The position numbers and the translations under genes are program-made. This document shows, in pieces, positions 1 to 64,000 of a stretch of DNA of 64,000 bases. The first letter of the stretch is position 1; every line of letters starts with the position of its first letter. Source of the DNA: a virus. Under the pieces are notes generated by a model. That model searched no databases, was not told the origin of the DNA, and saw nothing but the letters and a program-made list of their open reading frames with translations. The stretch is from positions 2,050 to 66,049 of the IMG/VR virus record IMGVR_UViG_3300015189_000003; one strand, given 5' to 3'.

Positions 1-3000
1 CATCGACCAAACGCCGTTTGACGGACGACTTCCAGGCGTCCGGGTTGGTTTTCTTCTCGCCCTTCTGCCCGAGCGTCCTCGGCTTCGCCAGGGCCGCGTC
101 AGACGGCGGAACGTAGCCGCCTTGTCCGGTCGGTGCTTCCGCCAGTCCGGACTTGTGCAGGGCGTCGTGGGCGGCCTGAATGGCCGAATGGACGGCGGGC
201 GAATGGCCGCTTAGCTGCTGGTGCGCGTCCGCCATCGCCGCCTTGACTTCGGGACCGTGGACAGCCGCCGAGTGATGGTCCGCCAAAGCCTCGTGGTGGA
301 CCGCCTGCGCGGCCAGGGAAGCCGCCTTGGCGTCGTCCGGCTCGTTGGCTGCCGCCTTGCTTAGAGTCTCGTGGAGAGCCTTGTGGTGGGCGTGGGAGTC
401 TTCCCGCGGTTGGTTCGCTTCCGCGATGCTTTCCGGCGTGCCGAACTTCGGCCGCTTCGGGTCGATGCCTTGCGTCGGCGCGATGACCTTCCCCGGGTCG
501 ATTCCGAACTTCTCGCGCAAGAGCTCTTCGTCGGTCGGCGGTCCCTTGGCGGCTGCAGGTGCTGCGCCAGCTTTCGCGGGCTTATTGCTCTTGTCGTGGT
601 GCTTGGCGGCCAGTTCGTATTCGCGAAACACCTTCCGCTTGTGCGTCACGTATCGCGACCAGGCGGCCAAGTCCTTCGCGTCCGCACCGTTCTTGCCGGC
701 GGCGTCCATGCCTTGAACGGCCGTCTGCCATTCGGCGTGCGCCTTGTTGGAATTTTCCCGATGGGGATTAAAACCGGCTGCAAACGGCGAATCGCCAGCC
801 GGATTGACCGGCGGAGGGGCGGAATTGTCCTGAACGGGATTGGCAGGCGTGACGTTGGGGGCGGCCGAGGGTGTTTCGTTCGCTACAGGCCCGGCTGGAC
901 CGGTTGCGGGCGAGGGTGCGGCTTGGGGCGCGGGGCCGGCGGCGGCTGGATTGGCTGGGGTCGGGGTGTTGGCTTGCGGAGGAGGTGCGGCATTGGGTTG
1001 GGCTCCTTGTCCGGTCCCCGTGCTCATCACCCCATTTTGCGGGCTTTGTGCGGGATTTTGACCGTTTTGAGGCTGTTTCGGTCCCCCTTGCTCATCGACC
1101 CGTCCGGGTGGGTTTAAGAGCGGCTTTCCACCCATGGCGGACTTGACGATGCCGGTCTTGCTCGTGTAATTCGCCTTGCCGTCCTGGCCGACAACGAAGC
1201 TGCCGGCTTCCGAGGCAAAGCCCGTCCGCCCGTCGCCAAAGTCAACGGCCAGGCCGCCGCCGACGTGCGAGCTTTTGAGCTTTGTGCCGTCTGGCATGAT
1301 GATCGCGGGCCCGTCCCCCTTCGCGGCCGACTGGCCGAGCCACGAATGCAGCTTGGCGGCGTGATTCGGGTCGAGCTTCTGACTCGCCACTTCGCCGCCG
1401 GATTTGTAATCCGGATGCTCGTGGAAAGCCCGAATCAGACCGCCGGCTTGCTCGTCGATGCCGCCGAGGGCGTTAGAGACGTGCGAATGCCGGTCCTCGT
1501 GGGACGGTTCGAGCAGCGGCTGACCGGTCATCTTGTCGGCCAGCTTTTTGCGGTCTTGCTCGCCGGTCATCTTCGGAACCTTCGGGTCGATGCCGAGCTT
1601 CGCCATGGCCCCGGCTTCGTCCGGACCTCTTTTCGGTGTGCTGTTGGCGTCAACGGTGTCCGCGGTATGCGCGGCAACGTCGTCTTTGTCCTGGCGTTCC
1701 CACCTATGGTGAGCGTTCAAAACGTACGTATGCGAACCCTTCGTCATCGTCTCGCCGACTTGATGGCCGGTCTTCCACCGAGGGTCGGTGCCGAGGCCGG
1801 CGGCGTATTGCACCGGCCCCTTGGGCTGGTCCGGCTCGTCGTCCGGAGGTGATTCGCCGCCACCTTCGTCCTGGCCCTCATCCCCCATCGCGGGCCCAAA
1901 GGCGTCCGCGACGTTCATTCCTTCGGCCCCAGGCTGTCCGGGCATTCCCCCGGGCATTCCACCTTGAGGGGCCATTTGCGGATTCTGCAAGACCTCGTCG
2001 TCGGCCGTCGGCATGGAGATACCGACCATGTCGGCAACATCCGATGCCTTGATGCGCAGGCCCATGTCCCAGGCACCCTTGACCGCGGCGAGCTTCTTTT
2101 CCGCGTTTGCCGATTCGGTGTCGATGACGAAACGAAAATTAATGTCCCGCGCCCAGGCAAATTCCGGGTTGAAGTCCTGCAGATGCCGCAAGAGCTCCCG
2201 CGTCATCGTCTCTTCGAGCTTGACGGCGTCGTATTTGATGATCGCGTTCATCGTCTCTTGATGAAGATTCGCGACTTCCGAGCCCATGCCCGTCGATTCC
2301 GCTTCGCTCGATAGCACCTGGCCGACGATGTACCGCTTGATTTGCCAGCCAAAAAACTCGTGGACGACCGACTTTAGGGCGTCGATGCCGGCCGTTGACG
2401 GCTCAATCCGGTCGATTCCGTAGCCGTCCATCGCTACGTCGCCAGGCGTCCGCGGCATCACGATTGCGTTTTGGTGGTTCTGGTTGCGGGCCATCTCCTC
2501 CATTTCCGTCTTGGCCGACGGATTGTGAGCCGGGTAATAATAAATCGTGAAGCCCGAGCCCGTCCGCTCGACGACTTCCATCAGGTGCGCCATCGTCTGC
2601 TGCTTTTGGAACCAGCACCAGTAAATCCGGTCGCGCACGCCGACACCGTGGATCCGGCCGGCCGAAAGGGCGTCCTCGTAAACGCCATCCTCGATAATAT
2701 GCCGGTGGAGAGCGATTCGAGCCCGTTCCCACGGTTCCAGGAAGTAAGCCGGCCCCTGGTCGGTCATCTCGATTTTGCGGTCGCCGGCAATCGCGTCGTG
2801 ACGGCCGTAGGACAGGCCGACCTTGATGCCGACCTCGTCGCCGTTGTGCTTGCCGGTTCCGTCGTCGTAGCGAAAGACGAGCTTGTCGCCGTTGATTGGC
2901 GACCACCGCTTGACGACGATTCGCTTCTTGCCCTTGATGTTCCGGAAGCCGTAGGCGTGCTGATTGGCGTAGCGGCCGTACCAAATCGCCTCGAGCAGGT

Positions 3001-3448
3001 TCCGCCGATATTCGGTGAAGTCGGGCGTCGCCTGCAAAATGTCCGTCAGGTCGTCGGCCATTTGCCGCTGGCGATCGTCCTTCTTGTCTTCCGGCTCGAT
3101 ATGCCAGTTGAGTAGCGCCGTGCCGCGCTGCCGAGCTTCCAGGCATTCCATGATCGCGCAGTCGTTGCGCATGATCCTGGCTTGTTCCGGCCCCTGGCTG
3201 TAGGCAATGTCCGGATTGCGATAGACTTGGCTGAAGGTCGAATGCCGGCCGGAAAACGTCAGAATTTGCGGCAGCATGTCGCGGCCGAAGTTCGGTGGAA
3301 CGCCGGCGATGCCGCGGGCCGGGTCGAGAGACGCCTTGCCGTCCTCGACGACGCGCGCGTATTTCTTGGGTAGTCGCTGGCCGGGCTTGTACGTCTTGCC
3401 GCCGTGCCGAAAACCAGAGGGGGGGGCGACCGGGTGGTTATTTTTCAT
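1..3448 (-). CDS. Portal protein (DUF935/Mu gp29-like) with a very long low-complexity C-terminal extension; 3' partial
   Basis: Not in the ORF track because it has no stop in the window. Manual translation from ATG at 3448 (MKNNHPVAPP...) stays open to position 1 (1149 codons). The first ~500 aa show DUF935-like motifs (DCAIMECLEARQR, LLEAIWYGRY, IKRYIVGQVLSS). It lies downstream of terL. Confidence 0.85.
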   Translation of the reverse strand, partial: MKNNHPVAPPSGFRHGGKTYKPGQRLPKKYARVVEDGKASLDPARGIAGVPPNFGRDMLPQILTFSGRHSTFSQVYRNPDIAYSQGPEQARIMRNDCAIMECLEARQRGTALLNWHIEPEDKKDDRQRQMADDLTDILQATPDFTEYRRNLLEAIWYGRYANQHAYGFRNIKGKKRIVVKRWSPINGDKLVFRYDDGTGKHNGDEVGIKVGLSYGRHDAIAGDRKIEMTDQGPAYFLEPWERARIALHRHIIEDGVYEDALSAGRIHGVGVRDRIYWCWFQKQQTMAHLMEVVERTGSGFTIYYYPAHNPSAKTEMEEMARNQNHQNAIVMPRTPGDVAMDGYGIDRIEPSTAGIDALKSVVHEFFGWQIKRYIVGQVLSSEAESTGMGSEVANLHQETMNAIIKYDAVKLEETMTRELLRHLQDFNPEFAWARDINFRFVIDTESANAEKKLAAVKGAWDMGLRIKASDVADMVGISMPTADDEVLQNPQMAPQGGMPGGMPGQPGAEGMNVADAFGPAMGDEGQDEGGGESPPDDEPDQPKGPVQYAAGLGTDPRWKTGHQVGETMTKGSHTYVLNAHHRWERQDKDDVAAHTADTVDANSTPKRGPDEAGAMAKLGIDPKVPKMTGEQDRKKLADKMTGQPLLEPSHEDRHSHVSNALGGIDEQAGGLIRAFHEHPDYKSGGEVASQKLDPNHAAKLHSWLGQSAAKGDGPAIIMPDGTKLKSSHVGGGLAVDFGDGRTGFASEAGSFVVGQDGKANYTSKTGIVKSAMGGKPLLNPPGRVDEQGGPKQPQNGQNPAQSPQNGVMSTGTGQGAQPNAAPPPQANTPTPANPAAAGPAPQAAPSPATGPAGPVANETPSAAPNVTPANPVQDNSAPPPVNPAGDSPFAAGFNPHRENSNKAHAEWQTAVQGMDAAGKNGADAKDLAAWSRYVTHKRKVFREYELAAKHHDKSNKPAKAGAAPAAAKGPPTDEELLREKFGIDPGKVIAPTQGIDPKRPKFGTPESIAEANQPREDSHAHHKALHETLSKAAANEPDDAKAASLAAQAVHHEALADHHSAAVHGPEVKAAMADAHQQLSGHSPAVHSAIQAAHDALHKSGLAEAPTGQGGYVPPSDAALAKPRTLGQKGEKKTNPDAWKSSVKRRLVD

Positions 3449-4221: not shown

Positions 4222-5535
4222 TCAGTTGAACAGATAATTTTTCTTATTGGCTTCGCGGCGTCCGTTGATAATCGCGACGTGTTCGGCTTCAAGTTCGACG
4301 CCTACGCATGGAATCCCGGCGTTATCGCAGGCAATGAGCGTCGTCCCGCTGCCGGCGAACGGGTCAAGGATGCGATTCTCGCCCGGCATCGTGACCAGCT
4401 TGACCAGATATTCCATGAGCTTTAGCGGCTTGACGGTCGGATGCGTGTTGCCTTCGCCCCGGTCGGACTTGGAAGCTTTGGCGCAGTAGAAGAAGCGGGC
4501 GGCGCTGCCGGAGTCGAGACGCCGCGCGCCGGGCTTCATTGCGAAATTCGTCCCGCCTTCTTCGGCATACCGTGTTTCTTGCGACGGTTCGCCGACGCGA
4601 TTCATTGCCCCGTAGACATTGCTTGTTTTCTTGCTTGGGGCCGAATTGCTAATGTCCGCCAACTGCCCAGGGGCGGACGGAAACCCCGCCAGCACTTCTT
4701 CGCTTCCGTCGCGAATGACGTTCGCTGGCCAGCGGCCGGAATCCGAGCCAGTCCGCGAAGGCATCGACGCCCCGCCGTGATAGCCCATATCGGCGGACGG
4801 CCCCTTTCGCTGGACGATGGTTGGCTCCGTCCCCACCCTGCACCCGTCGATATTCAGCGCCCCGCAGCCATGCTCCAAGCAATTTGCCGCCACGGTCCCA
4901 CTAAGGGGCTTGCGGGCGACGATGACAGGCTCATAGGCGGGCTTGAGGGCGGTTCCATAGCCGGACCAAAGTTTCGCGGCGTCGGTTGCGGCAGTCGTGA
5001 TATTGGCAATCATCCGCTCGCCATTGTCCCGCTTGTAGTTGTCGCCGCGAATGTCCGGCCCAACGTCGCGCGTCCCAGTGACTTCCCGCTCCGCTCCCGC
5101 CGCCTTATCAATCGCCTTGCTCACATCCAGCGACTTCGGGAATCCGCTCCCGTAAATCCACATGATGCAGTCCCGAATCTCAAACCCGGCATCCTCGATA
5201 GCGCAGCAAATTCGGTGATAGGTCCGTGTGCCGCCAAAAGCGAGTAAATGAGCGCCGGGCTTGAGGACGCGCAGGACTTCCGCCCAAGTTTCAGGACGCA
5301 TGGCAACGTCGCCGCCGTCCCAGGCTTTGCCCATGAAGCCGCCGGACTTATGCCCGCGTCCAGCCTTGTTGGTCGGACCCTTTGGGCCGCCGCTGTCACT
5401 GGAATGCTTGAACGACGAATAATCGACGGAGAGATTCCCGCTCGTCAAATGATACGGCGGGTCAGTCACGCAAGCCGTGAAGCTGTCCGCTTCGAGCGTC
5501 GGCAGAACATCGAGCAGGCTTCCGTGGTGGAGCAC
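4222..5535 (-). CDS. DNA amino-methyltransferase (N6-A/N4-C, beta class)
   Basis: DPPY motif near the N-terminus and DPFAGSGTT near the C-terminus. Probable GTG start at 5535 overlaps the upstream TAG (TAGTG). Confidence 0.9.
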   Translation of the reverse strand: MLHHGSLLDVLPTLEADSFTACVTDPPYHLTSGNLSVDYSSFKHSSDSGGPKGPTNKAGRGHKSGGFMGKAWDGGDVAMRPETWAEVLRVLKPGAHLLAFGGTRTYHRICCAIEDAGFEIRDCIMWIYGSGFPKSLDVSKAIDKAAGAEREVTGTRDVGPDIRGDNYKRDNGERMIANITTAATDAAKLWSGYGTALKPAYEPVIVARKPLSGTVAANCLEHGCGALNIDGCRVGTEPTIVQRKGPSADMGYHGGASMPSRTGSDSGRWPANVIRDGSEEVLAGFPSAPGQLADISNSAPSKKTSNVYGAMNRVGEPSQETRYAEEGGTNFAMKPGARRLDSGSAARFFYCAKASKSDRGEGNTHPTVKPLKLMEYLVKLVTMPGENRILDPFAGSGTTLIACDNAGIPCVGVELEAEHVAIINGRREANKKNYLFN

Positions 5536-5759
5536 TACGCCGCCGCCTTTACAATTTGGTCGAAGAGCACCCGAGCAAACCACTTGCTTCGCCCGCTCCC
5601 ATCCTTCCCCTTGGCCGAGACGGTCCCGCGATTCTGCCCGCGGCCGCTTTCCATCCCGACCGCCACCGGAATCGGATAACAAATCCTCTTGGGCGGCTCC
5701 GTCTTCCCGCCCGCCCTCAGCCACTTCGCCACCTTCTTACACTGACTCTTCGTGTGCAT
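5535..5759 (-). CDS. Hypothetical protein
   Basis: ATG after the repeated AAAAGAGGAGATGAAGGCG leader. Confidence 0.5.
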   Translation of the reverse strand: MHTKSQCKKVAKWLRAGGKTEPPKRICYPIPVAVGMESGRGQNRGTVSAKGKDGSGRSKWFARVLFDQIVKAAA

Positions 5760-9087: not shown

Positions 9088-10521
9088 TCATGTCACACTT
9101 CCCCTAACAGCATGTACGCCGAATCTCCGACCGTCCGTTTGAATCTTGTAGCCGGTCGGCGAGGCTTGCTTCGTCCGAATGCGGCTCGTGTAGAGCGCGT
9201 ATCGCAAGGCGTCGCAGGCGTGGTCTTCCACCTTCATCGGCTCGTCGCTTGGCGAGCGAATCGACCCGCCGTCCGGATACCGATAGCCGAGGATTTCGCG
9301 GATGAGATTCGCGCACTTATCAAAAATGAACAGTTGCGGCTTGCCGTCCCCTTGGACAATCATTTTGCCGCGGACGTACTCGATTCCCGCATTGACTTCT
9401 TTGGCGGCCGGCGTGCAATGGATGCCGTACTGGCTCAGTTCCGAGCGGACTTGCGGGTCGTGGTCGCTGTACGTCGCGCCGAACCACGGCTGACTCTCCC
9501 ACACTCGCTTATTGATTTCCCGAGCGTGGTCGGCAAGTAGCGTCTGGTTGCGATACCACTCGTCATAAACGTAATGCCGGCCGTCAGGATCCCGGGCAAT
9601 CCACAGGCAGCAAAATGAATTGTTAAACCCGAAGTCGATGCCGCGAATTCGCATCCAGCCGGCCGGAATCGTGAACGGCTCGATAACATGAATCTTCTTG
9701 CGAAATTCCTTGTAGACCTGGCCGGCGAGGGCCGTAAAGCGGCCGATGGTCCGCAGTTCGCGCATCTCTTCCGGCACCGTGGCGAAAAAATTACGCTTCC
9801 AGTCTTCGGAGATGTATGGATTCTTGAGGGTGTTGAGGTGATACCACGCCCACCCAGGCGGACACTCGTCATACGCAGCAGGCCACTCAGGATCGCGGCA
9901 CTCGATCGGCGTGAAGTCTGCCCACCCAGGCGAGTTGTAGTCTCGGCAGCGGCCTTTGATTTCCAGCAGAAGGTGGTAGGGAATTTCCTCGTTGCACCAA
10001 AAGCCACCCACCGACTCGGCTTTCATCGACGAGATGCCTTGCTCGTAAGACTTAAACTCCAGTACCCATCCTATTTTCCCTGGCATCGTCGGATGCTTCA
10101 GCAGCACAGACCGGGGTCGCCGCAACTTATGATCGTGCCATCGAATGTCCGCAATGTCTTGCTGCGGTATAAGCTGCGAGAGCTTTTCGCCCCAGCAAAC
10201 ATTCGTGACCTGGTCGAGCTTTTCGCCAATGATCCAGAATGGACAGCGCTCGCGCGGAGGAGGGCGATTTTTAACAAAGCGAGCGGTCTTTAGGGCCGCG
10301 GCCAGCGTTTTTCCCGACCCTGTCCCGCCAAGGCAAATCGCAAAATCACTCGTGTCGTCTTCCACGAATGCCGTTTGCTCATCGTATTCGTCCGGACAAT
10401 CCGGCCTTGTCGAGAACGTATAAAACGGGTGGGTCAGCAAGGCATGGGCGCGCTCTTGGTCCTCTCGCGAGCCTCGCTCAAAAATGGCTTTAATTTGATC
10501 GGAAGTCAGAGCTGTTGCCAT
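9088..10521 (-). CDS. terL: Terminase large subunit
   Basis: Walker A GGTGSGKT, Walker B WCNEE, nuclease motifs IRGIDFG and DHACDALRY. Confidence 0.95.
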   Translation of the reverse strand: MATALTSDQIKAIFERGSREDQERAHALLTHPFYTFSTRPDCPDEYDEQTAFVEDDTSDFAICLGGTGSGKTLAAALKTARFVKNRPPPRERCPFWIIGEKLDQVTNVCWGEKLSQLIPQQDIADIRWHDHKLRRPRSVLLKHPTMPGKIGWVLEFKSYEQGISSMKAESVGGFWCNEEIPYHLLLEIKGRCRDYNSPGWADFTPIECRDPEWPAAYDECPPGWAWYHLNTLKNPYISEDWKRNFFATVPEEMRELRTIGRFTALAGQVYKEFRKKIHVIEPFTIPAGWMRIRGIDFGFNNSFCCLWIARDPDGRHYVYDEWYRNQTLLADHAREINKRVWESQPWFGATYSDHDPQVRSELSQYGIHCTPAAKEVNAGIEYVRGKMIVQGDGKPQLFIFDKCANLIREILGYRYPDGGSIRSPSDEPMKVEDHACDALRYALYTSRIRTKQASPTGYKIQTDGRRFGVHAVRGSVT

Positions 10522-11260
10522 CGGAAGTTTTTCTCGCGTCCTCCAAATAAGCAATGCCGCGACGCATTAAGCTGGTGTCGTCGCCAAACTGCCCCAGGGC
10601 CGTATTGCAACGGAAGCAAAGCAAGCCGCGAACCATCCCGGTTGCGTGGCAGTGGTCAACCACCAAAATCCCACGCTTGGTGTCAGAAGCGGCAACCCCG
10701 CACATCTTGCAGGCGTTTCCTTGCTCGATGTTCAGCCGGTCGAACTCTGCCGCGGAAATTCCATAGCGGTCGCGCAAGTGTTGCAATCTGGCCTTCTCGC
10801 GCCGACATTCAAGGCAATGGACTTGGCGGCCTCCCGGAAGTCTCTTGTTGAGCCCAAAATCAGAAACAGCTTTGTCTTGCAGGCACCCCTTACATCGCTT
10901 TGATCCGCCGGCAGTGGGCGGCGCGGAGTTTTCCGCCATTATTCTGCTTGTATATTTTTCAACATGGCTGGCAAACTTGTCTTTATTGGCTGCGTACCGA
11001 TTTCTAAACTTCTCGTTGTAAGCGGCACGGTCTTTAGCCCGCTGCTCGCGGCACAGCGCGGCGTACTCCTCTTTGTTTTGCTGATAATGCCTTCTCCCGG
11101 TCGCTCGCAGAACATCCCGGTTTGCTTCGGCCCAAATTGCCGTGCATGATTTACACCGATAAACAAAGCCGCCTTTCTTTGTGCGGTCCCGATGAAACTC
11201 GCTGGCCGGCTTCTCTGTTTCGCACTTGCTGCAAACTTTCGTTGTTGTTTCCATGCCCAC
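10490..11260 (-). CDS. Endonuclease VII-family homing endonuclease
   Basis: Two KxCxxC...K repeats and C-terminal CKMCG...LVVDHCHATGMVRGLLCFRCN. Confidence 0.9.
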   Translation of the reverse strand: MGMETTTKVCSKCETEKPASEFHRDRTKKGGFVYRCKSCTAIWAEANRDVLRATGRRHYQQNKEEYAALCREQRAKDRAAYNEKFRNRYAANKDKFASHVEKYTSRIMAENSAPPTAGGSKRCKGCLQDKAVSDFGLNKRLPGGRQVHCLECRREKARLQHLRDRYGISAAEFDRLNIEQGNACKMCGVAASDTKRGILVVDHCHATGMVRGLLCFRCNTALGQFGDDTSLMRRGIAYLEDARKTSDGNSSDFRSN

Positions 11261-56945: not shown

Positions 56946-58010
56946 CTAGGCGACGGCGGAGGTGAACAGGAAGCCGCTCACAGGGGCGATTGCCACCATG
57001 TGATAGTCATCCGTCACGCGGGCCAGATGCACCCGGTTGTCCACGTCGTGCTTAGTCTCGACGCTCAGCTCTTCCTTGAAGAAACCGGCGAACGTCGAGA
57101 AGTTGGGAGCGCTGTTGCTGTCGGTCGGCGCGACGAGCGAGCCGGGGCGAGAGCAAAGGAACGGGCTGGTGTCGCTGCAAACGTAGGAGTTGGCGAGCGT
57201 GGCACCCTTCTTCGAAGTCACCTTGACGGTGTCCTCGATGACGATTTCCGTTCCGTAGATGGAAGGCGGCAAGCCGAACGACATGTTCTTCTTGGCGTTG
57301 CTTCCAAATTCGCCGGTGATCCACGCCTTGGCGTCGGGAGCACCCTTGATGAGGTCGACGATTTCCTGGCTGACGCTCATCTTGCGGGCGCAGCCGGGGG
57401 ACATAACGAGCTTGATGTCGTTGACGTTGATCCCGCCGAGGGTGTCCTTAAACATCAGTTCCTTGGCATAGTCCAGGGACCGCTTGATGTCCTGCCGGGC
57501 AGTCGTGGACGCATCCCACTTGCCAGTCACGCCCGTGATGGACGAGACGGCGGAAGTGTGGGTCGAGTCGTAGGTGCCGGTCGTCTGCGCGAGCGTGACA
57601 GCCTTCTGGGTCCGGGCGGTCATCAGCTTTTGGAGCTGAATGCGTCCGTACTGCGCGAGGATGTCCCAAGACGCTTCGTCGACCATCTTCTGGCCGAGGC
57701 GGACGACGTCGGTGTACCGGGTTGTTCCGTAGGCCAGAAATTCGAACTTCTCGGTGTTCCCGCGGCCCGAGGGCGCGTCGCTCCCGTCCGCCCAGATCAT
57801 GTCCGTCAAGCTGGACGACAAAAGCCGGCCGGCCTGTTCGACGGTCATTTTCAGGTAATACCCGACACTCTTCGTGACGGGGATAATCTGAATCCACTTG
57901 TTGAGGGCGAACGACTCGACATTACGCGAGAAGTCCACGACCAGGCCCTTGGTCGCCTCAGCCGAGGGGACGTAGGTATTCGGTGCACCACCAGGAAAAA
58001 CAGCAGTCAT
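56946..58010 (-). CDS. Major capsid protein
   Basis: 354 aa following the scaffold and cement genes and preceding the gp36-like gene. Confidence 0.8.
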   Translation of the reverse strand: MTAVFPGGAPNTYVPSAEATKGLVVDFSRNVESFALNKWIQIIPVTKSVGYYLKMTVEQAGRLLSSSLTDMIWADGSDAPSGRGNTEKFEFLAYGTTRYTDVVRLGQKMVDEASWDILAQYGRIQLQKLMTARTQKAVTLAQTTGTYDSTHTSAVSSITGVTGKWDASTTARQDIKRSLDYAKELMFKDTLGGINVNDIKLVMSPGCARKMSVSQEIVDLIKGAPDAKAWITGEFGSNAKKNMSFGLPPSIYGTEIVIEDTVKVTSKKGATLANSYVCSDTSPFLCSRPGSLVAPTDSNSAPNFSTFAGFFKEELSVETKHDVDNRVHLARVTDDYHMVAIAPVSGFLFTSAVA

Positions 58011-58615: not shown

Positions 58616-60007
58616 TTACGCCGCGGGCTTTTGCTCATAACTCTTGCGAACCGTTTCGCAGGCGTCGCGGAACGGAATATGCTTGCCGGCCTTAGTGGCG
58701 GCGTCGCAGATTTTTTCCGCCTCTTTCATGTACATGGTCCGCTTCCGGTCGCTGTCGCTGTCCGTCTCGATTCCCTTGGGAACCGGGAGCATGTTCAGCG
58801 GGATCCGCTGATACTTCTTGACGACGGTGTCGGTGAACTTGCCGAAAGCCGCGTCGGACAGGTCTTGAACGTCGGCGATTTCCTCGTCGGGAACGATGAC
58901 AAAGCCCTGCGCCTTGAGGTCGTTCAGTTTCTGATAGCGAGTCGCCCGGCGGGCCTCCCGCTTCGAGCCTTCCACCACAGCGGCCAGCTCGTCGTGTTTG
59001 GCGGTGATTTCGCGGAGGTCGACAACGGCTTTTTGATATTTGACTTGGTACTCGTCGGCCATCCGCTGATACTTTTTGACCGCGGGCTCGTCGTCCTCTT
59101 CGTCCGGCTTTTCGGCCTCGACCGGCGGGGCTTCCGGCTTGTCTTCCGGCTTGTCCTCGTCGATTTCCGGCGCGTCGTTCAGTTCATCGGGCGGAGCGTC
59201 AACGGGAGCGGCTTCGCCTTCGGCCGGCGGCATTTCGGGCGGCATCTCGTCGCCGTCCGGCTCGCCTTCGGGCGCGATTTCGGCACCGGCGTCAACATCC
59301 GGGGCGGGATTCATTTCGGCAAAAATCGCCTGGCAGACCGGCTTCATGGCAACCACAATCTGCTGAATATCTTCAGGGGACAGCATGAGCTTGCTCGCCT
59401 TTTCGTAGGTTTTAGGTTTCTTCTCTTCGACCATGCCAGGAAGGACGACATTCGTCCCGCCGGCTTCGGCGGCGTAGTGCGCCAAACGCGAGTACTTTAC
59501 GCATCGCATCCCGGACTTTTCAGCCTTGCCGTAAAGTACTGGCAAATCCAGCTCTGGCATCTCGCTTCCGAGGAGGCTCACAGGATGGAAATATCCATCG
59601 GTGGGCCTGGTCTTTGAGCACCAGAATTCAACACTTCTGTACGGATACTTGCGAACCTTATGGGCGTCATCGCGGTATACCCGCATTTTTCCATAAACGG
59701 CGGCAACCATCCCCTTGCCGTCGTCTGATTCAATCGTGCCGAGTCGGTACGGCCCGCACAGTCCAATCACTTCCGGGTCGCGACCATCTCCGTTGTGGCG
59801 AATCACAATCGGGGCGAAAGCCTTGCGCCGGATAATCCGGTCATTGCATCGCTTGGTGATTCGCTCCATCGCCGCCTTGTCAAAGCGGTTTCCGTCCCTG
59901 TCTACATGTTCAGTGAACAGGCAAACGTACCCGAAATCACGAAACTCCCCATCGTCCGTTGCGGACATACTTTGTGGACGGAGCTCGGATAACTGGCGTT
60001 CATTCAC
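58616..60007 (-). CDS. Prohead protease/scaffold (Mu gp32-like)
   Basis: N-terminal domain with H...YPYRSVEF...VSLLG, then an acidic linker and coiled coil. Confidence 0.75.
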   Translation of the reverse strand: MNERQLSELRPQSMSATDDGEFRDFGYVCLFTEHVDRDGNRFDKAAMERITKRCNDRIIRRKAFAPIVIRHNGDGRDPEVIGLCGPYRLGTIESDDGKGMVAAVYGKMRVYRDDAHKVRKYPYRSVEFWCSKTRPTDGYFHPVSLLGSEMPELDLPVLYGKAEKSGMRCVKYSRLAHYAAEAGGTNVVLPGMVEEKKPKTYEKASKLMLSPEDIQQIVVAMKPVCQAIFAEMNPAPDVDAGAEIAPEGEPDGDEMPPEMPPAEGEAAPVDAPPDELNDAPEIDEDKPEDKPEAPPVEAEKPDEEDDEPAVKKYQRMADEYQVKYQKAVVDLREITAKHDELAAVVEGSKREARRATRYQKLNDLKAQGFVIVPDEEIADVQDLSDAAFGKFTDTVVKKYQRIPLNMLPVPKGIETDSDSDRKRTMYMKEAEKICDAATKAGKHIPFRDACETVRKSYEQKPAA

Positions 60008-61440: not shown

Positions 61441-62042
61441 ATGCAATTAACAATTACCAAGACAATCCTCAGTTTGTGCGATTATTCGGGCGTGTGGAGC
61501 CAGCCGTTTGCAGACGCTGGCTACGAAGTGATTCGCGTTGACCTGCAGCATGAAGGAGATGTTCGCCTGCTGGAATATCCCGGTCGAGTTCACGGAATTT
61601 TAGCCGCTCCACCGTGTCGCGTTTTCTGTCGGCCGGGTGCTCGACTCTGGCAAGAGTGGGGCGATAAGGAACTGCTGAATGGGCTTTCTATTGTTGACGC
61701 TTGCTTGCGACTGGTAGCCGTCTGCCGGCCGGCATGGTGGGCTTTGGAAAATCCACCAGGACGGCTTGATAAGTACCTCGGGCCGCCGTCGCTGCCTTTC
61801 CATCCTTGGGAATTCGGCGACGCATACACCAAGCATACACCAAGCATACATATCTCTGGGGCAAGTTTTCCGCACCAGAAAAATCGCCTGTCGAGCCGGA
61901 AGCCTACCCCGACAACCTTCCTCCGGGGCGCAGGGACCGCACAAGCCGAATGTCCTCCTCGTGGCGGAACGAACGGGCGATGACGCCGCCGGGCTTCGCC
62001 AGGGCGTTCTTTGAGGCTCAAGACCGCTTCAAATCCGGATAA
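61441..62042 (+). pseudogene. Small C5-methyltransferase-like gene frameshifted by an 11-bp duplication
   Basis: LSLCDYSG, AAPPC, LENPPG; the C-terminus (TYLWGKF...TPPGFARAFF) is in another frame after (CATACACCAAG)2. Confidence 0.8.
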
Positions 62043-64000
62043 TCCTTTAGGACTTCCGGCGGAACTTCTTTGCCGGCGTCGAGTGCGGCCTTGACTGCCT
62101 GCCGATGGGTCTGCAGTTTTTTGGGATTGAAAACGGCAGTCTCGGTCCCATATTCTGGATGCTCCGACTTGGCGGCGTCATAGCCTTGCTCTTCGAGCAT
62201 CTTGCGGAACACGTCGCCGCCGCGTTCCTTGTAGGCATCCATCGCTATTTCGTGGACGTCGCCGGGCTCTTCGTCGGGATGCTTCGCTTGAATCTCGGCA
62301 ACGTGCTCTTTCCACGCGGCAGTATCTTTATAGCCGGGAGGCATAAAACCTTTGCTGGCGTCGTAAACCTTGGCGTCTGGATGCAGCCGTCCGACGTGCA
62401 ACTCTCCACCGTGGCCGAAGTCCTTCTCGGATACGTCGCGGTTCGAGGCAAAATAAACCGCCTTGCCGAATTGCGGGGCGTGCCGAGCTTCGAGCGAATT
62501 AACGCCTTTGCTACGCGAACCGTGGAACATTGAATCTTTGTGTTCGGCGAATTCGTCCCGCGTCATTTCGTGCGGCTCTTTGTCCATGCCTGCATTGTCG
62601 TGTTTCTTCGATGGTTTCTCAACCTTCTCGCCCGTCGGCTCAGCTTTTTTTGATTCAGGTTCCGCGCCGCCCAACATTGCTTTCAATGCGGGATGCTTGT
62701 CGGTGAGTTCAGCCGGAGGGGACTCGCCCGATTCGATTGCCATTGCGACTTTCTGCAAGTCGTAATGCGGAATCCGCAGCAAGTCGTCCTTTCCTAAGTT
62801 GACTTTGCTTCCGTCTGGTCGCTGCAAGGAAACGGATTTTTCGTTGACCTTGGCGACTTTGTAGGCATCCCTCCCCATGCCAGCATAAACCGTCATTCCG
62901 GGCGTCAATTCTTCGTCGCCGATTTTGTTCCACTTCCGCACGTCGGTTGCCGCAGACTTGACGGCAGCCGCCGCATTCCGCTTTTTATGGTCTTGGATGA
63001 CCATGCGAGCATCGTCGTGAATGCCGGGCGTGTTTTCGTCAACTTCGCCCCGCTCGTGGGCTTCGATTACGCCTTTCGAGTAGCCGGATAGTCCACTGGA
63101 TACGTTGCCCATGCGGGCGTCAGCCTTGGCGTTCATCCGGTCGAGTTCGCGGCCAGACGTGCGAGAAGCCTGCAAGCCAGAGATTTCGCCCAACTGCCCG
63201 CCTTCTCGTTTTGGTTTTTCTGTTTTCCACAGTGGCGGCTTATCTTCCGCCTTGTCAACTTTCTTCCCCGACTGACTCCCAGGCTGACCAGCCGCGTCGT
63301 GCAGCCGCTTGAATCCCTCTTGCTGTTCCTTCCATTCGGCGGCCTTCTTGCCTTCGTCGGGGTCTTTGCCGTCCGGGCCGATTTTGACGACGGCTTTTTC
63401 GCCCTGGCGGCGACCTTCGGTAATCTCGACTTCGTGCATTCCGTCGACCATCTTGCCGGTGTACTTCGCGGCGTCGCCGTTGACGTAGGGGGTCTTGGCG
63501 GCCGGCTTCTCTTCCGCCGGCGGCTTTTCCTTCCCCGCCAAATTCTCCTTCCGCTTCGCCAAAATCGCGTCCCGTCTGGCAATCCATTCCGCCTTCGGCA
63601 GCGTGGCGATTCCAGCCGCCTTCATTTCGGCAGAATGTCTCGCATAAGCGGCGTCGTCGGCGGGGTTGCTTGCTCCCCGTGGAACATGAGCCGGGTCAAT
63701 CGGCTTCGGGTCTTTTAGTCCGCCGCCAACTGCCGGGTAACTCTTTACTCCATAGCCGGGATTTCCGAATGACAGAGGGTCGATAACGGGCTTCCCCGCT
63801 CCCCCATCCCCCTTCGGCTCCGGCCCCTTCGGGACGGCGGGCGAGGGCGCGGGGCCGTCGTTATCCGGATTCAGGTCCGGATAATCGGCGAGGACGTCGG
63901 CGGGAATGTCCTTGCCTTTGGCGAGAGCGGATTCGACTGCGCGCCTATGGTTCCGGTCGGTTTGCGTCCTGGCGTTTGCGGATGCCTTTTTGTCCGCAAT
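62018..64000 (-). CDS. Large polyvalent protein with a putative ADP-ribosyltransferase domain; 5' partial
   Basis: The frame is open from 64000 to TGA at 62018. It contains FHGS...FGKAVYFA...GYDA...ETAVFNPKKL and two copies of H-R-x-A-V-x-x-A-L-x-x-G-K-x-[IV]-P-x-x-V-L-x-D-Y-P-D-L. Confidence 0.75.
   Translation of the reverse strand: MADKKASANARTQTDRNHRRAVESALAKGKDIPADVLADYPDLNPDNDGPAPSPAVPKGPEPKGDGGAGKPVIDPLSFGNPGYGVKSYPAVGGGLKDPKPIDPAHVPRGASNPADDAAYARHSAEMKAAGIATLPKAEWIARRDAILAKRKENLAGKEKPPAEEKPAAKTPYVNGDAAKYTGKMVDGMHEVEITEGRRQGEKAVVKIGPDGKDPDEGKKAAEWKEQQEGFKRLHDAAGQPGSQSGKKVDKAEDKPPLWKTEKPKREGGQLGEISGLQASRTSGRELDRMNAKADARMGNVSSGLSGYSKGVIEAHERGEVDENTPGIHDDARMVIQDHKKRNAAAAVKSAATDVRKWNKIGDEELTPGMTVYAGMGRDAYKVAKVNEKSVSLQRPDGSKVNLGKDDLLRIPHYDLQKVAMAIESGESPPAELTDKHPALKAMLGGAEPESKKAEPTGEKVEKPSKKHDNAGMDKEPHEMTRDEFAEHKDSMFHGSRSKGVNSLEARHAPQFGKAVYFASNRDVSEKDFGHGGELHVGRLHPDAKVYDASKGFMPPGYKDTAAWKEHVAEIQAKHPDEEPGDVHEIAMDAYKERGGDVFRKMLEEQGYDAAKSEHPEYGTETAVFNPKKLQTHRQAVKAALDAGKEVPPEVLKDYPDLKRS

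Follow-up and report, generated by a model that had tools for sequence, protein, structure and literature searches.

Does a portal gene that runs without a stop far beyond its portal domain, up to the end of an assembled contig, encode a genuine fusion protein, and what might its long carboxyl tail do? The locus lies at one edge of the window, the 64,000 nt stretch of viral DNA analyzed here, which corresponds to C1:2050–66049 of a virus record of 66,403 bp. The analysis makes it likely that this is an uncultured phage of ~66 kb whose single portal gene forms an in-frame fusion with a 'polyvalent' internal head protein. All features described below are on the minus strand.

The portal domain and the open reading frame

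The fusion gene occupies positions 1..3448 of the window (residues 1–1149), as delimited by the open reading frame, codon periodicity and dN/dS. From the ATG at position 3448 to window position 2 the frame is free of stops and yields 1,149 aa (ORF listing and translation). The original prediction of an open frame from this ATG to position 1 is confirmed and proves to be an understatement: in the whole record the frame stays open to contig base 2 and reaches 1,832 aa, with no stop yet. With stop codons forming ~0.029 of random codons at ~62% GC, the chance of 1,832 open codons is ~e^-54.

A Mu-type portal makes up the N-terminal ~490 residues. Residues 92–477 (positions 2018..3175) match Portal_Mu (PF06074, DUF935) in Pfam with an E-value = 2.4e-40 and 139.4 bits (cut-off 23.9), covering model positions 7–336 of 336; phrog_113 (portal) is matched as well. 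A six-frame search gives 141 bits for this segment, which is the single PF06074 match in the whole contig. In cultured phages only remote portal matches are found, with 23–26% identity. Behind the portal domain, the succession that had been described, a Gly/Pro/Met linker, a module with GETMTKGSHTYVLNAHHRW, and Pro/Ala/Asn-rich and His-rich stretches, is present in full.

The two ends of the contig

A second frame, P0006, is 778 aa long and open at its 5′ end. Its window part is found at 62018..64000, with the stop codon at 62018–62020, and it is probably the C-terminal third of the portal fusion. Judged from sequence, the portal frame and P0006 are most likely one gene of ~2,614 aa with a gap of ~4 codons; the tail beyond the portal has at least 1,330 extra residues, and probably ~2,100 in all. 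An assembly break within a run of Gly codons would be the sole interruption between the two edge frames. The terminal motif '...PGQxKLFE' of the portal frame is continued by 'G[LM]DL[GA]G' in three other portal fusions, the leftover base at contig position 1 is a G, which fits a Gly codon, and P0006 starts with GGGG. P0007 is an independently assembled orthologue (other sample, other assembler) with 56% identity over 1,479 aa. Its last 45 residues match P0006 positions 1–39 (E-value = 0.17) and 240–268 (44% identity, E-value = 2e-4), in the same order. The contig is probably nearly complete, since contigs of relatives measure 57–73 kb. Its first 34–40 bases have no exact match in viral or metagenome contig collections, and the probable end-to-end join is deduced from homology.

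It is unlikely that the frames at the two contig ends represent distinct genes, with the portal fusion stopping ~50 residues past the contig end and the 778-aa frame forming part of another polyvalent gene that starts in sequence missing from the contig. Such an arrangement would resemble P0007, which ends ~50 residues beyond the point matching the contig end, its stop falling 47 residues past the shared PGQ..LFE motif. In addition, the contig is linear per IMG/VR and 68% complete per CheckV, and in the related record L004 distinct ParB-like and 1,480-aa genes come after the portal fusion. However, P0006 opens with the GGGG that trails the motif in P0007 and continues with the remaining P0007 tail in unchanged order, the leftover base suits the Gly run, and the right-end frame has no upstream stop. 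The contig also matches those of relatives in size, and its gene order is canonical once circularized.

Coding status of the tail

The tail is conserved coding sequence. The GC3>GC1>GC2 pattern is kept along the entire portal-tail frame, and comparison with P0007 gives dN/dS values of 0.10–0.39 across residues 501–1400; the low-complexity residues 801–900 are the sole unconstrained stretch.

That the fusion is an artefact of assembly or sequencing, in which a ~500-aa portal and the next gene are joined through an overlooked stop or frameshift, is extremely improbable. Some relatives do have a stop precisely here, and a single-base error could interconvert the two forms, but P0007, the closest relative, is fused in frame through a homologous linker, more than 235 further proteins are likewise fused, and the linker is under purifying selection (residues 501–600, dN/dS 0.30). 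No in-frame slippery heptamer XXXYYYZ is found near the portal-tail junction. A stop or frameshift near 1900–1960, named in the original prediction as an observation that would speak against a fusion, is contradicted by the in-frame homologues and by the absence of the heptamer; given P0007 and >235 independent homologues fused in frame there, it is excluded in practice.

Modules of the tail in the window

The joint between portal and tail is a Gly/Pro/Met/Asp/Glu-rich linker (residues ~487–545, positions 1814..1990), delimited from the translation and the P0007 alignment. It is also the site of the stop codon and new start in split relatives. Next to it is Module B (residues ~545–640, positions 1529..1816), a small mobile module that contains GETMTKGSHTYVLNAHHRW and is present in 24 fetched proteins, either directly after the portal or deeper in the tail, and also in P0363, a separate downstream gene.

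Module A (residues 640–780, positions 1109..1531) is the best conserved tail domain and is found in 19 other portal fusions. It shows 88% identity to P0007 over residues 701–800, with a dN/dS of 0.10. The predicted model is a confident alpha+beta structure (pLDDT 90.8), with no fold match in the PDB (Foldseek), AFDB clusters or BFVD. A VIA-align comparison with 48,161 chains gives a best Z of only 4.4, and in the ESM Atlas the shape search stays at TM <0.4 and the feature search is likewise without a match.

A Pro/Ala/Gln/Asn-rich low-complexity spacer (residues ~781–890, positions 779..1108), variable in length and sequence, has 37% identity to P0007 with many gaps. It is followed by Module C (residues ~891–1105, positions 134..778), which is His-rich, mostly helical-looking and common to 5 other portal fusions, and by the start of Module D (residues 1100–1250, positions 1..148), the remainder of which is outside the window. 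Module D is present in 13 other portal fusions and in P0363.

The fusion as a whole contains at least eight separable modules, each found at differing positions or in differing combinations in other proteins. A search with the whole tail and nine pieces of it gave no Pfam or PHROGs family above cut-off, and the tail residues in the window (~500–1149) display no recognizable effector and no Pfam, PHROG or PDB family; the enzyme-like modules of the fusion are all beyond the window edge of the portal frame. As Module A, the best conserved one, matches no known fold, most of the tail could be structural and not enzymatic. HMM and structure prediction on the extension, proposed as a check on the original prediction, gave an ADP-ribosyltransferase (ART) fold in the probable C-terminal part, no fold match for Module A and no family above its cut-off. 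Readings of QxxLF-type motifs (PGQTKLFE) as sliding-clamp-binding sites and of a DESKHPR...G.F motif as a processing site were considered and are not adopted.

A predicted C-terminal ADP-ribosyltransferase module and a weak ParB-like signal

The probable C-terminal end of the fusion, P0006 residues 585–778 (positions 62021..62602), is predicted from its fold model, Foldseek and ART-PolyVal likeness to have a PARP-like ADP-ribosyltransferase fold. It carries an H...Y...D/E pattern (FHGS, VYF, GYDA, TETAV) and a DYPDL-type C-terminal cap. ART-PolyVal (PF18760) matches at 17.9–21.5 bits, below the gathering cut-off of 31.2, and covers model positions 9–129 of 140. In the model (pLDDT 93.4), numbered by the modelled segment, H27 lies in strand 25–29 and Y50 in strand 46–52. 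Two conserved acidic residues, D142 and E154, fall at or within strands 143–148 and 152–157, and either is a candidate catalytic residue. The top Foldseek match is local (TM 0.46 by query), to a chain of the cyanophage A4 pre-ejectosome. Further matches are the anti-CRISPR AcrIF11 (6kyf, E-value = 6.6e-5), and many catalytic domains of the tankyrase/PARP type (E-value ~2e-3 to 1e-2), among them those of PARP4, PARP10 and PARP14.

A ParB-like module gives a weak signal. It matches phrog_8071 with an E-value = 0.002, aligns in register with the ParB-like module that P0007 and its relatives have at this position (hhalign probability 21%, E-value 1e-3), and has a language-model lead of 0.92; the ParB_N HMM (PF02195) gives no match. 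The ParB-like active-site Arg is absent: the fusion reads VDGNHSLQAA (DGNHS), where P0007 has GNRRR and another relative, P0005, has DGRHR. For both the ParB-like and ART pieces, phmmer found no match among PDB sequences. InPase is absent from the fusion protein and from the contig.

Fused and split forms among relatives

The original prediction asked whether DUF935 homologues carry variable C-terminal tails, and such tails are found: at least 235 portal homologues of 1,007–2,895 aa carry tails, whose content and size vary widely. Domains in these tails include InPase, LPD1, LPD3, ART-PolyVal, PBECR3, DarA_C, DUF5661, methylases, an SNF2 helicase and ParB_N, as well as sigma-70, 2H, TopIB, NUDIX and Zeta_toxin. 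For six relatives the domain names and their order behind the portal were verified, with polyvalent signature domains above cut-off. The portal domains of tail-bearing relatives are 43–74% identical to this portal, and 392 shorter portal homologues are found at an equal level of identity. A tree of 238 portal domains requires at least 33 switches between long and short forms.

In five of six short-portal relatives the portal gene is directly followed, on its 3′ side, by a gene of 1,037–3,415 aa; the sixth has no giant gene. P0363, such a separate downstream gene, contains modules of the fusion tail in matching order (E-values = 1e-21 and 4e-8). Close relatives encode such a giant protein in one of two ways, as part of the portal gene or as a separate next gene in the slot of Mu gp30/MuF. 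As judged by sequence comparison, the tail is a mosaic of mobile modules, shuffled in order and common to hundreds of portal tails. A search of viral contigs for related loci using the tail itself returned no relative.

An N-terminal motif of ~25 aa

Residues 6–33 (positions 3350..3433) contain a motif of ~25 aa with the consensus RAPKGGVRIGGKFYRGGQFIP (local HMM, E-value = 5e-11). Further into the fusion tail it is repeated at residues 1391–1414, which are not part of the window, and other internal head proteins carry it as well. The motif is N-terminal in 53 of 242 portal homologues and internal in 12, and it occurs four times in P0004, a protein with a protease domain. An improbable reading is that the motif is a peptide that docks to the capsid interior or DNA ring, and that the stop in the linker toggles the cargo between a tethered and a free form. 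If so, the motif would correspond, in phages, to a cargo-loading signal that places or holds internal proteins, and gain or loss of the linker stop would switch cargo between 12 fixed covalent copies at the exit channel and free molecules. In that case the clade would offer a natural experiment on the loading and dosing of giant polyvalent proteins.

Head gene context and the proposed role of the tail

With the contig circularized, the gene order is terminase, portal-tail, protease/scaffold candidate, capsid, adaptor. The large terminase (positions 9088..10554, Terminase_6N/6C) is 78% identical to the homologue in the related record L007, and the major capsid protein is at positions 56946..58010 (phrog_1005, E-value = 7.5e-8). 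Just upstream of the capsid gene, a 463-aa gene (positions 58616..60007) may encode a Mu-I-like prohead protease together with an acidic coiled-coil scaffold part. It shows a language-model lead to Mu-like_Pro clusters (0.93) and H...S motifs read by eye; the prohead protease HMMs PF10123 and PF04586 have no match in the contig. The product of this gene is a candidate for release of the tail. MuF (PF04233) has no match at E<=1 in the six frames of the contig, nor is MuF found in three related records, one of which has a short portal. A pattern of MuF in place of a tail was considered and rejected, as the short-portal relative is also without MuF.

The proposed sequence of events, packaging, cleavage and injection of the tail, is inferred by analogy with known systems. 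The C-terminus (crown/barrel) of portals points toward the capsid interior, such that each of 12 subunits would pull its tail into the procapsid, and the 12 tails would place a set amount of cargo at the DNA exit channel. A prohead protease might then cut the tail off, as for Mu gp29, and the freed tail would exit with the DNA at infection. The enzyme modules, i.e. the PARP-like ADP-ribosyltransferase and perhaps a degenerate ParB-like module, could act on host targets. The idea that the portal serves as a carrier of effector domains, put forward in the original prediction, is the best-supported reading, because relatives have polyvalent/effector tails, modules are held in common with them, the ART fold is predicted and Mu gp29 loses its C-terminal segment. 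The reading does not extend to tail residues ~500–1149, in which no effector is recognizable.

An unlikely alternative is that the tail is mainly architectural, a portal-tethered core or ejectosome-like structure, a spool organizer or a conduit for infection, with the enzyme as a minor addition. This overlaps with an effector-cargo role and does not exclude cargo. The majority of modules have no enzyme signature, including the best conserved one with its lack of a known fold, the terminal module has as its top Foldseek match the A4 pre-ejectosome chain, which is stacked on the portal, and phi24B gp47 is proposed as an ejection protein. Yet enzymes with cytoplasmic targets (methylases, helicases, sigma factors, TopIB, NUDIX) predominate in the tails of close relatives. 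Furthermore, tail content and length vary freely among close relatives and one of the six short-portal relatives lacks a giant gene, which is unlike an essential structural core.

Comparison with known systems

The original prediction held that head-associated toxin fusions are on MuF/gp30 and not on the portal. This was wrong, both from the at least 235 portal fusions and from Iyer et al., 2017 (J Bacteriol, PMC5512222), where PBECR, 2H and InPase are fused to portal domains, e.g. BcepF1.124, and an injected-cargo model is given for polyvalent proteins. The present fusion resembles these in having many small mobile domains in one polypeptide, a late/head gene setting, predicted packaging and injection, and a predicted ART and a weak ParB-type module. 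It has the 2–15 distinct recombined domains per polypeptide by which polyvalent proteins are recognized, it is encoded among virion/late genes of a portal-terminase phage and is joined to the portal itself, and of the signature domains of the class (ART-PolyVal, DdrB-like ParB, MPTase-PolyVal, LPD, InPase, PBECR and others) it shows only ART-PolyVal, below cut-off, and the weak ParB-like signal. It differs in that portal fusions there are the 'simplest architectures', whereas here the tail has 1,330 to ~2,100 residues, and in that the curated domain models matched here are limited to ART-PolyVal, sub-cut-off.

In Mu, the last 124 residues of the portal gp29 are absent from the virion structure, which is attributed to protease I (PMC11915804). 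Gp29 is of the same portal family, and its processing is a direct precedent for the loss of a C-terminal portal tail inside the head. However, no cargo role is known for the Mu tail of ~124 aa and Mu encodes gp30/MuF separately, whereas this phage has no MuF and its protease is a candidate only. MuF effectors (gp30, SPP1 gp7) share with the fusion a head-internal, portal-associated anchor with variable C-terminal enzymes, and the tail gene takes the place of MuF, after the portal and before the protease/scaffold. In this phage the portal itself is the anchor, and in split relatives the anchor is non-covalent.

The predicted ART module keeps the strand-1 His, strand-2 Tyr and a conserved Asp/Glu of AcrIF11 and PARP/tankyrase, but is only 12–18% identical to them. 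In the cyanophage A4 pre-ejectosome, helices of the portal C-terminal barrel touch ejection proteins inside the capsid (PMC12002296), and in phi24B virions the 2,811-aa polyvalent protein gp47 has been detected (bioRxiv 10.64898/2026.04.10.717836). In both, as proposed here, giant multi-module proteins are in the capsid beside the portal C-terminal barrel. These are separate gene products without a covalent link to the portal, and the A4 paper (PMC12002296) does not mention an ADP-ribosyltransferase.

Portal-anchored polyvalent head proteins are thus a class that is already published and is very common in metagenomes. Anchoring to the portal would determine how many copies of the injected proteins are present (12) and where they sit, at the DNA exit. 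The uncultured clade, with hundreds of portal fusions and very varied anti-host enzymes, is a catalogue of first-wave phage effectors and also a source of unknown domains, e.g. the conserved module at residues 640–780. Within this class the gene described here is a well-documented example of a published concept and not a discovery.

Portal fusion

The frame starting at ATG 3448 on the minus strand shows no stop as far as position 1 of the window (1,149 aa within the window by translation), as the original prediction had it. The window covers bases 2050–66049 of a 66,403-bp IMG/VR record, and past window position 1 the frame stays open to record base 2, reaching 1,832 aa with no stop yet. The predicted DUF935-like portal domain is also borne out: residues 92–477 match Portal_Mu (PF06074, Pfam, E-value = 2.4e-40) and the PHROG portal phrog_113, and no second portal match occurs in the contig.

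An artefactual fusion is very unlikely, because the GC3>GC1>GC2 codon pattern is present along the whole frame, no slippery heptamer is found near the portal-tail junction, and a fused orthologue, P0007, is found complete (1,715 aa) in a separate Logan assembly, that of the relative L007. P0007 shares 56% identity over 1,479 aa, including the tail, and dN/dS in windows against it is low, at 0.10–0.39 across residues 501–1400. A Pro/Ala-rich spacer is the only unconstrained stretch in that range. The tail is real coding sequence.

A 500-aa DNA methyltransferase (window 4222–5724, minus strand) separates the terminase region from the portal; it is absent from the close relative L007, where an endonuclease VII gene is found in that region. 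A 180-aa open reading frame (61441–61983, plus strand), convergent with the giant gene, carries cytosine-5 methyltransferase-like motifs (LSLCDYSG..., PPC, ENPPG). It is far below full enzyme size, and could be either the remnant of a gene or a small subunit.

Modules of the tail

Almost nothing in the curated libraries matches the tail. Modules were delimited by local iterative searches against fetched relatives. The tail consists of modules with Gly/Pro/Ala/Lys/Glu-rich linkers between them, and each module is found again in other proteins at differing positions. Module A (residues 640–780) shows 88% identity to P0007 with dN/dS = 0.10, a conservation equal to that of the portal core, and occurs in 19 other portal fusions. 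Its AlphaFold2 model is a confident alpha+beta structure (pLDDT 90.8) with no match in PDB, AFDB clusters, BFVD or ESM Atlas. As modelled, module A is without a recognisable relative, which does not in itself make it a new fold.

A putative ParB-like module lies at residues ~1680–1800, outside the window. It gives a weak match to phrog_8071 (E-value = 0.002) and a weak, in-register hhalign alignment with the ParB-like module of P0007 and its relatives, in which the signal is clearer. It does not match PF02195 and does not have the conserved arginine of the ParB family.

The 3′ end of the gene

At the right contig end the minus strand carries P0006, a 5′-open frame of 778 aa, followed by a 134-aa open reading frame, an endonuclease VII/HNH gene, a 463-aa gene, the major capsid protein and the head-tail adaptor. 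Together with the large terminase (TerL, 9088–10554) these genes are in canonical head-module order, provided that the contig is circularised.

Several features suggest that the two contig ends almost adjoin. The last complete residues of the portal frame are '...PGQTKLFE', after which a single base is left over (G on the coding strand). The same motif is followed by 'G[LM]DL[GA]G' in three other portal fusions, P0007 reads '...LFEGLDLGGGGH...' where the shared motif occurs, and P0006 begins 'GGGGK...'. The rest of the P0007 tail is found within P0006 with its order kept (P0006 240–268, 44% identity, E-value = 2e-4, with a weaker match at 1–39). P0006 modules are also found in other portal fusions, and the contigs of relatives are 57–73 kb. 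Scans with the end sequence of the contig gave no match. Judged from these sequence comparisons, it is quite likely that the frames form a single gene of ~2,614 aa, from which ~4 codons are missing in a run of Gly codons.

The CheckV completeness of 68% is probably an underestimate, since relatives with the same gene order are on 57–73-kb contigs. The contig (window 1–64000 plus 2,049 and 354 flanking bases) is probably a near-complete, circularly permuted genome, its presumed break being the run of Gly codons (C/G homopolymers).

The last ~190 residues of P0006 match ART-PolyVal below cut-off. An exhaustive search yielded 14 homologous cores, whose alignment conserves [FY]HG[ST], G.x[IV]YF, GYD and E.AV. 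The model (pLDDT 93.4) resembles AcrIF11, many tankyrase/PARP catalytic domains and a cyanophage A4 pre-ejectosome chain. We accept this module as a predicted ADP-ribosyltransferase fold with an H-Y-D/E site. The remaining matches are mostly to a ~30-aa C-terminal cap, '...GK.VP..VL.DYPDL', which about a hundred giant proteins of polyvalent type carry, with up to six copies in one protein. P0006 has two copies of this helical cap ('...A.. GK.(I/V)P..VL.DYPDL'), at residues 748–777 (window 62024–62113) and 131–175 (63830–63964). In the model the cap is packed against the ADP-ribosyltransferase domain.

Fused and split forms in relatives

A search of proteins of 1,007–3,206 aa showed at least 235 portals that are 43–74% identical to this one, and variable C-terminal tails, looked for on homologous portals, are indeed present. 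The tails carry polyvalent-class domains (InPase, LPD1, LPD3, ART-PolyVal, PBECR3, DarA_C, DUF5661), nucleic-acid enzymes (methyltransferases, SNF2-type helicases, ParB_N, 2H phosphoesterase, type IB topoisomerase) and also sigma-70 regions, NUDIX, Zeta_toxin and ADP-ribosylating exotoxin domains; domain names and the N-terminal position of the portal were confirmed on six of the long relatives. A further 392 portals of equal identity level are found at 308–980 aa, from plain ~520-aa portals up to intermediate lengths. Tail lengths among 242 fetched proteins form a continuum, and a FastTree of 238 portal domains requires at least 33 changes of tail class, with 300 aa as the lower limit for a long tail, in a sample drawn by length class in which some short entries are truncated fragments. 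No close portal was found among cultured phages (INPHARED).

Short-portal forms are usually not tail-less: in five of six such relatives on long contigs a giant protein is the next gene or follows one small open reading frame. The five are P0363 (1,254 aa), a 3,415-aa protein with SNF2-type helicase domains, a 1,575-aa protein with sigma-70 and InPase, a 1,037-aa protein with InPase and a 1,472-aa protein with Zeta_toxin. P0363 starts 8 nt past the portal stop and has modules common to the present tail in the same order. Thus portal and polyvalent protein form a conserved pair, whose fused and split forms differ by one stop codon.

The more distant relative L004 has a portal 31% identical to this one, in a 1,479-aa fusion (L004:9884–14320) whose end is a HEIGH metallopeptidase-like motif with a weak Peptidase_M90 match. 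A clear DGRHR ParB-like protein of 234 aa is a separate gene directly after it (L004:14325–15026). The same parts are therefore divided differently between genes.

A ~25-aa motif, consensus RAPKGGVRIGGKFYRGGQFIP, is found at portal residues 6–33 (window 3350–3433) and again at residues 1391–1414 of the fusion frame (contig bases 1256–1327, outside the window). It occupies the extreme N-terminus of 53 of the 242 portal homologues, this one included, and lies inside 12 portal tails. Further copies are found in the giant protein P0008, which is not a portal, and in two L004 proteins, P0003 and the 1,480-aa P0004; the latter carries four copies, and its N-terminal domain resembles the 463-aa protein. 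[quoted passage not shown]

Proposed packaging and comparison with known systems

The portal C-terminus (crown/barrel) is inside the capsid and touches ejection proteins (PMC12002296). Packaging of polyvalent proteins has been predicted (PMC5512222) and was observed in phi24B (bioRxiv 10.64898/2026.04.10.717836). With the domain identities, tail conservation, fused/split alternation and gene order observed here, a route can be proposed by analogy. The portal ring would bring twelve tails into the procapsid, a protease would then free them, and the freed tails would exit together with the DNA and then modify targets in the host. By our own estimate, twelve tails of ~2,100 aa amount to ~2.8 MDa and ~3,400 nm3, a few percent of the volume that 66 kb of DNA needs.

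The 463-aa gene (58616–60007, minus strand), directly before the capsid gene, is the candidate for this protease and probably encodes a Mu-I-like protease-scaffold. A language-model lead connects its N-terminal domain to Mu-like_Pro clusters; prohead protease HMMs gave no support. This domain has H...S motifs (IRHNG, RSVEF) in common with the N-terminus of P0004. Behind it come an acidic Pro/Glu linker and then a C-terminus that resembles a coiled coil. In Mu gp29, of the same portal family, the last 124 residues are missing from virions, which is attributed to protease I (PMC11915804).

Iyer et al. (2017) defined polyvalent proteins and noted portal domains fused to PBECR, 2H and InPase. Within that class the present gene is a large, Pfam-poor example. 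The idea of a portal as effector carrier with release by a protease is thus supported, but not the premise that effector fusions do not involve portals. We found no description of the recurrent 25-aa motif or of the systematic alternation of fused and split forms.

No MuF domain is found in the contig or in three related records. In Mu, gp30/MuF is situated between the portal and the protease/scaffold, whereas here that slot is filled by the polyvalent gene.
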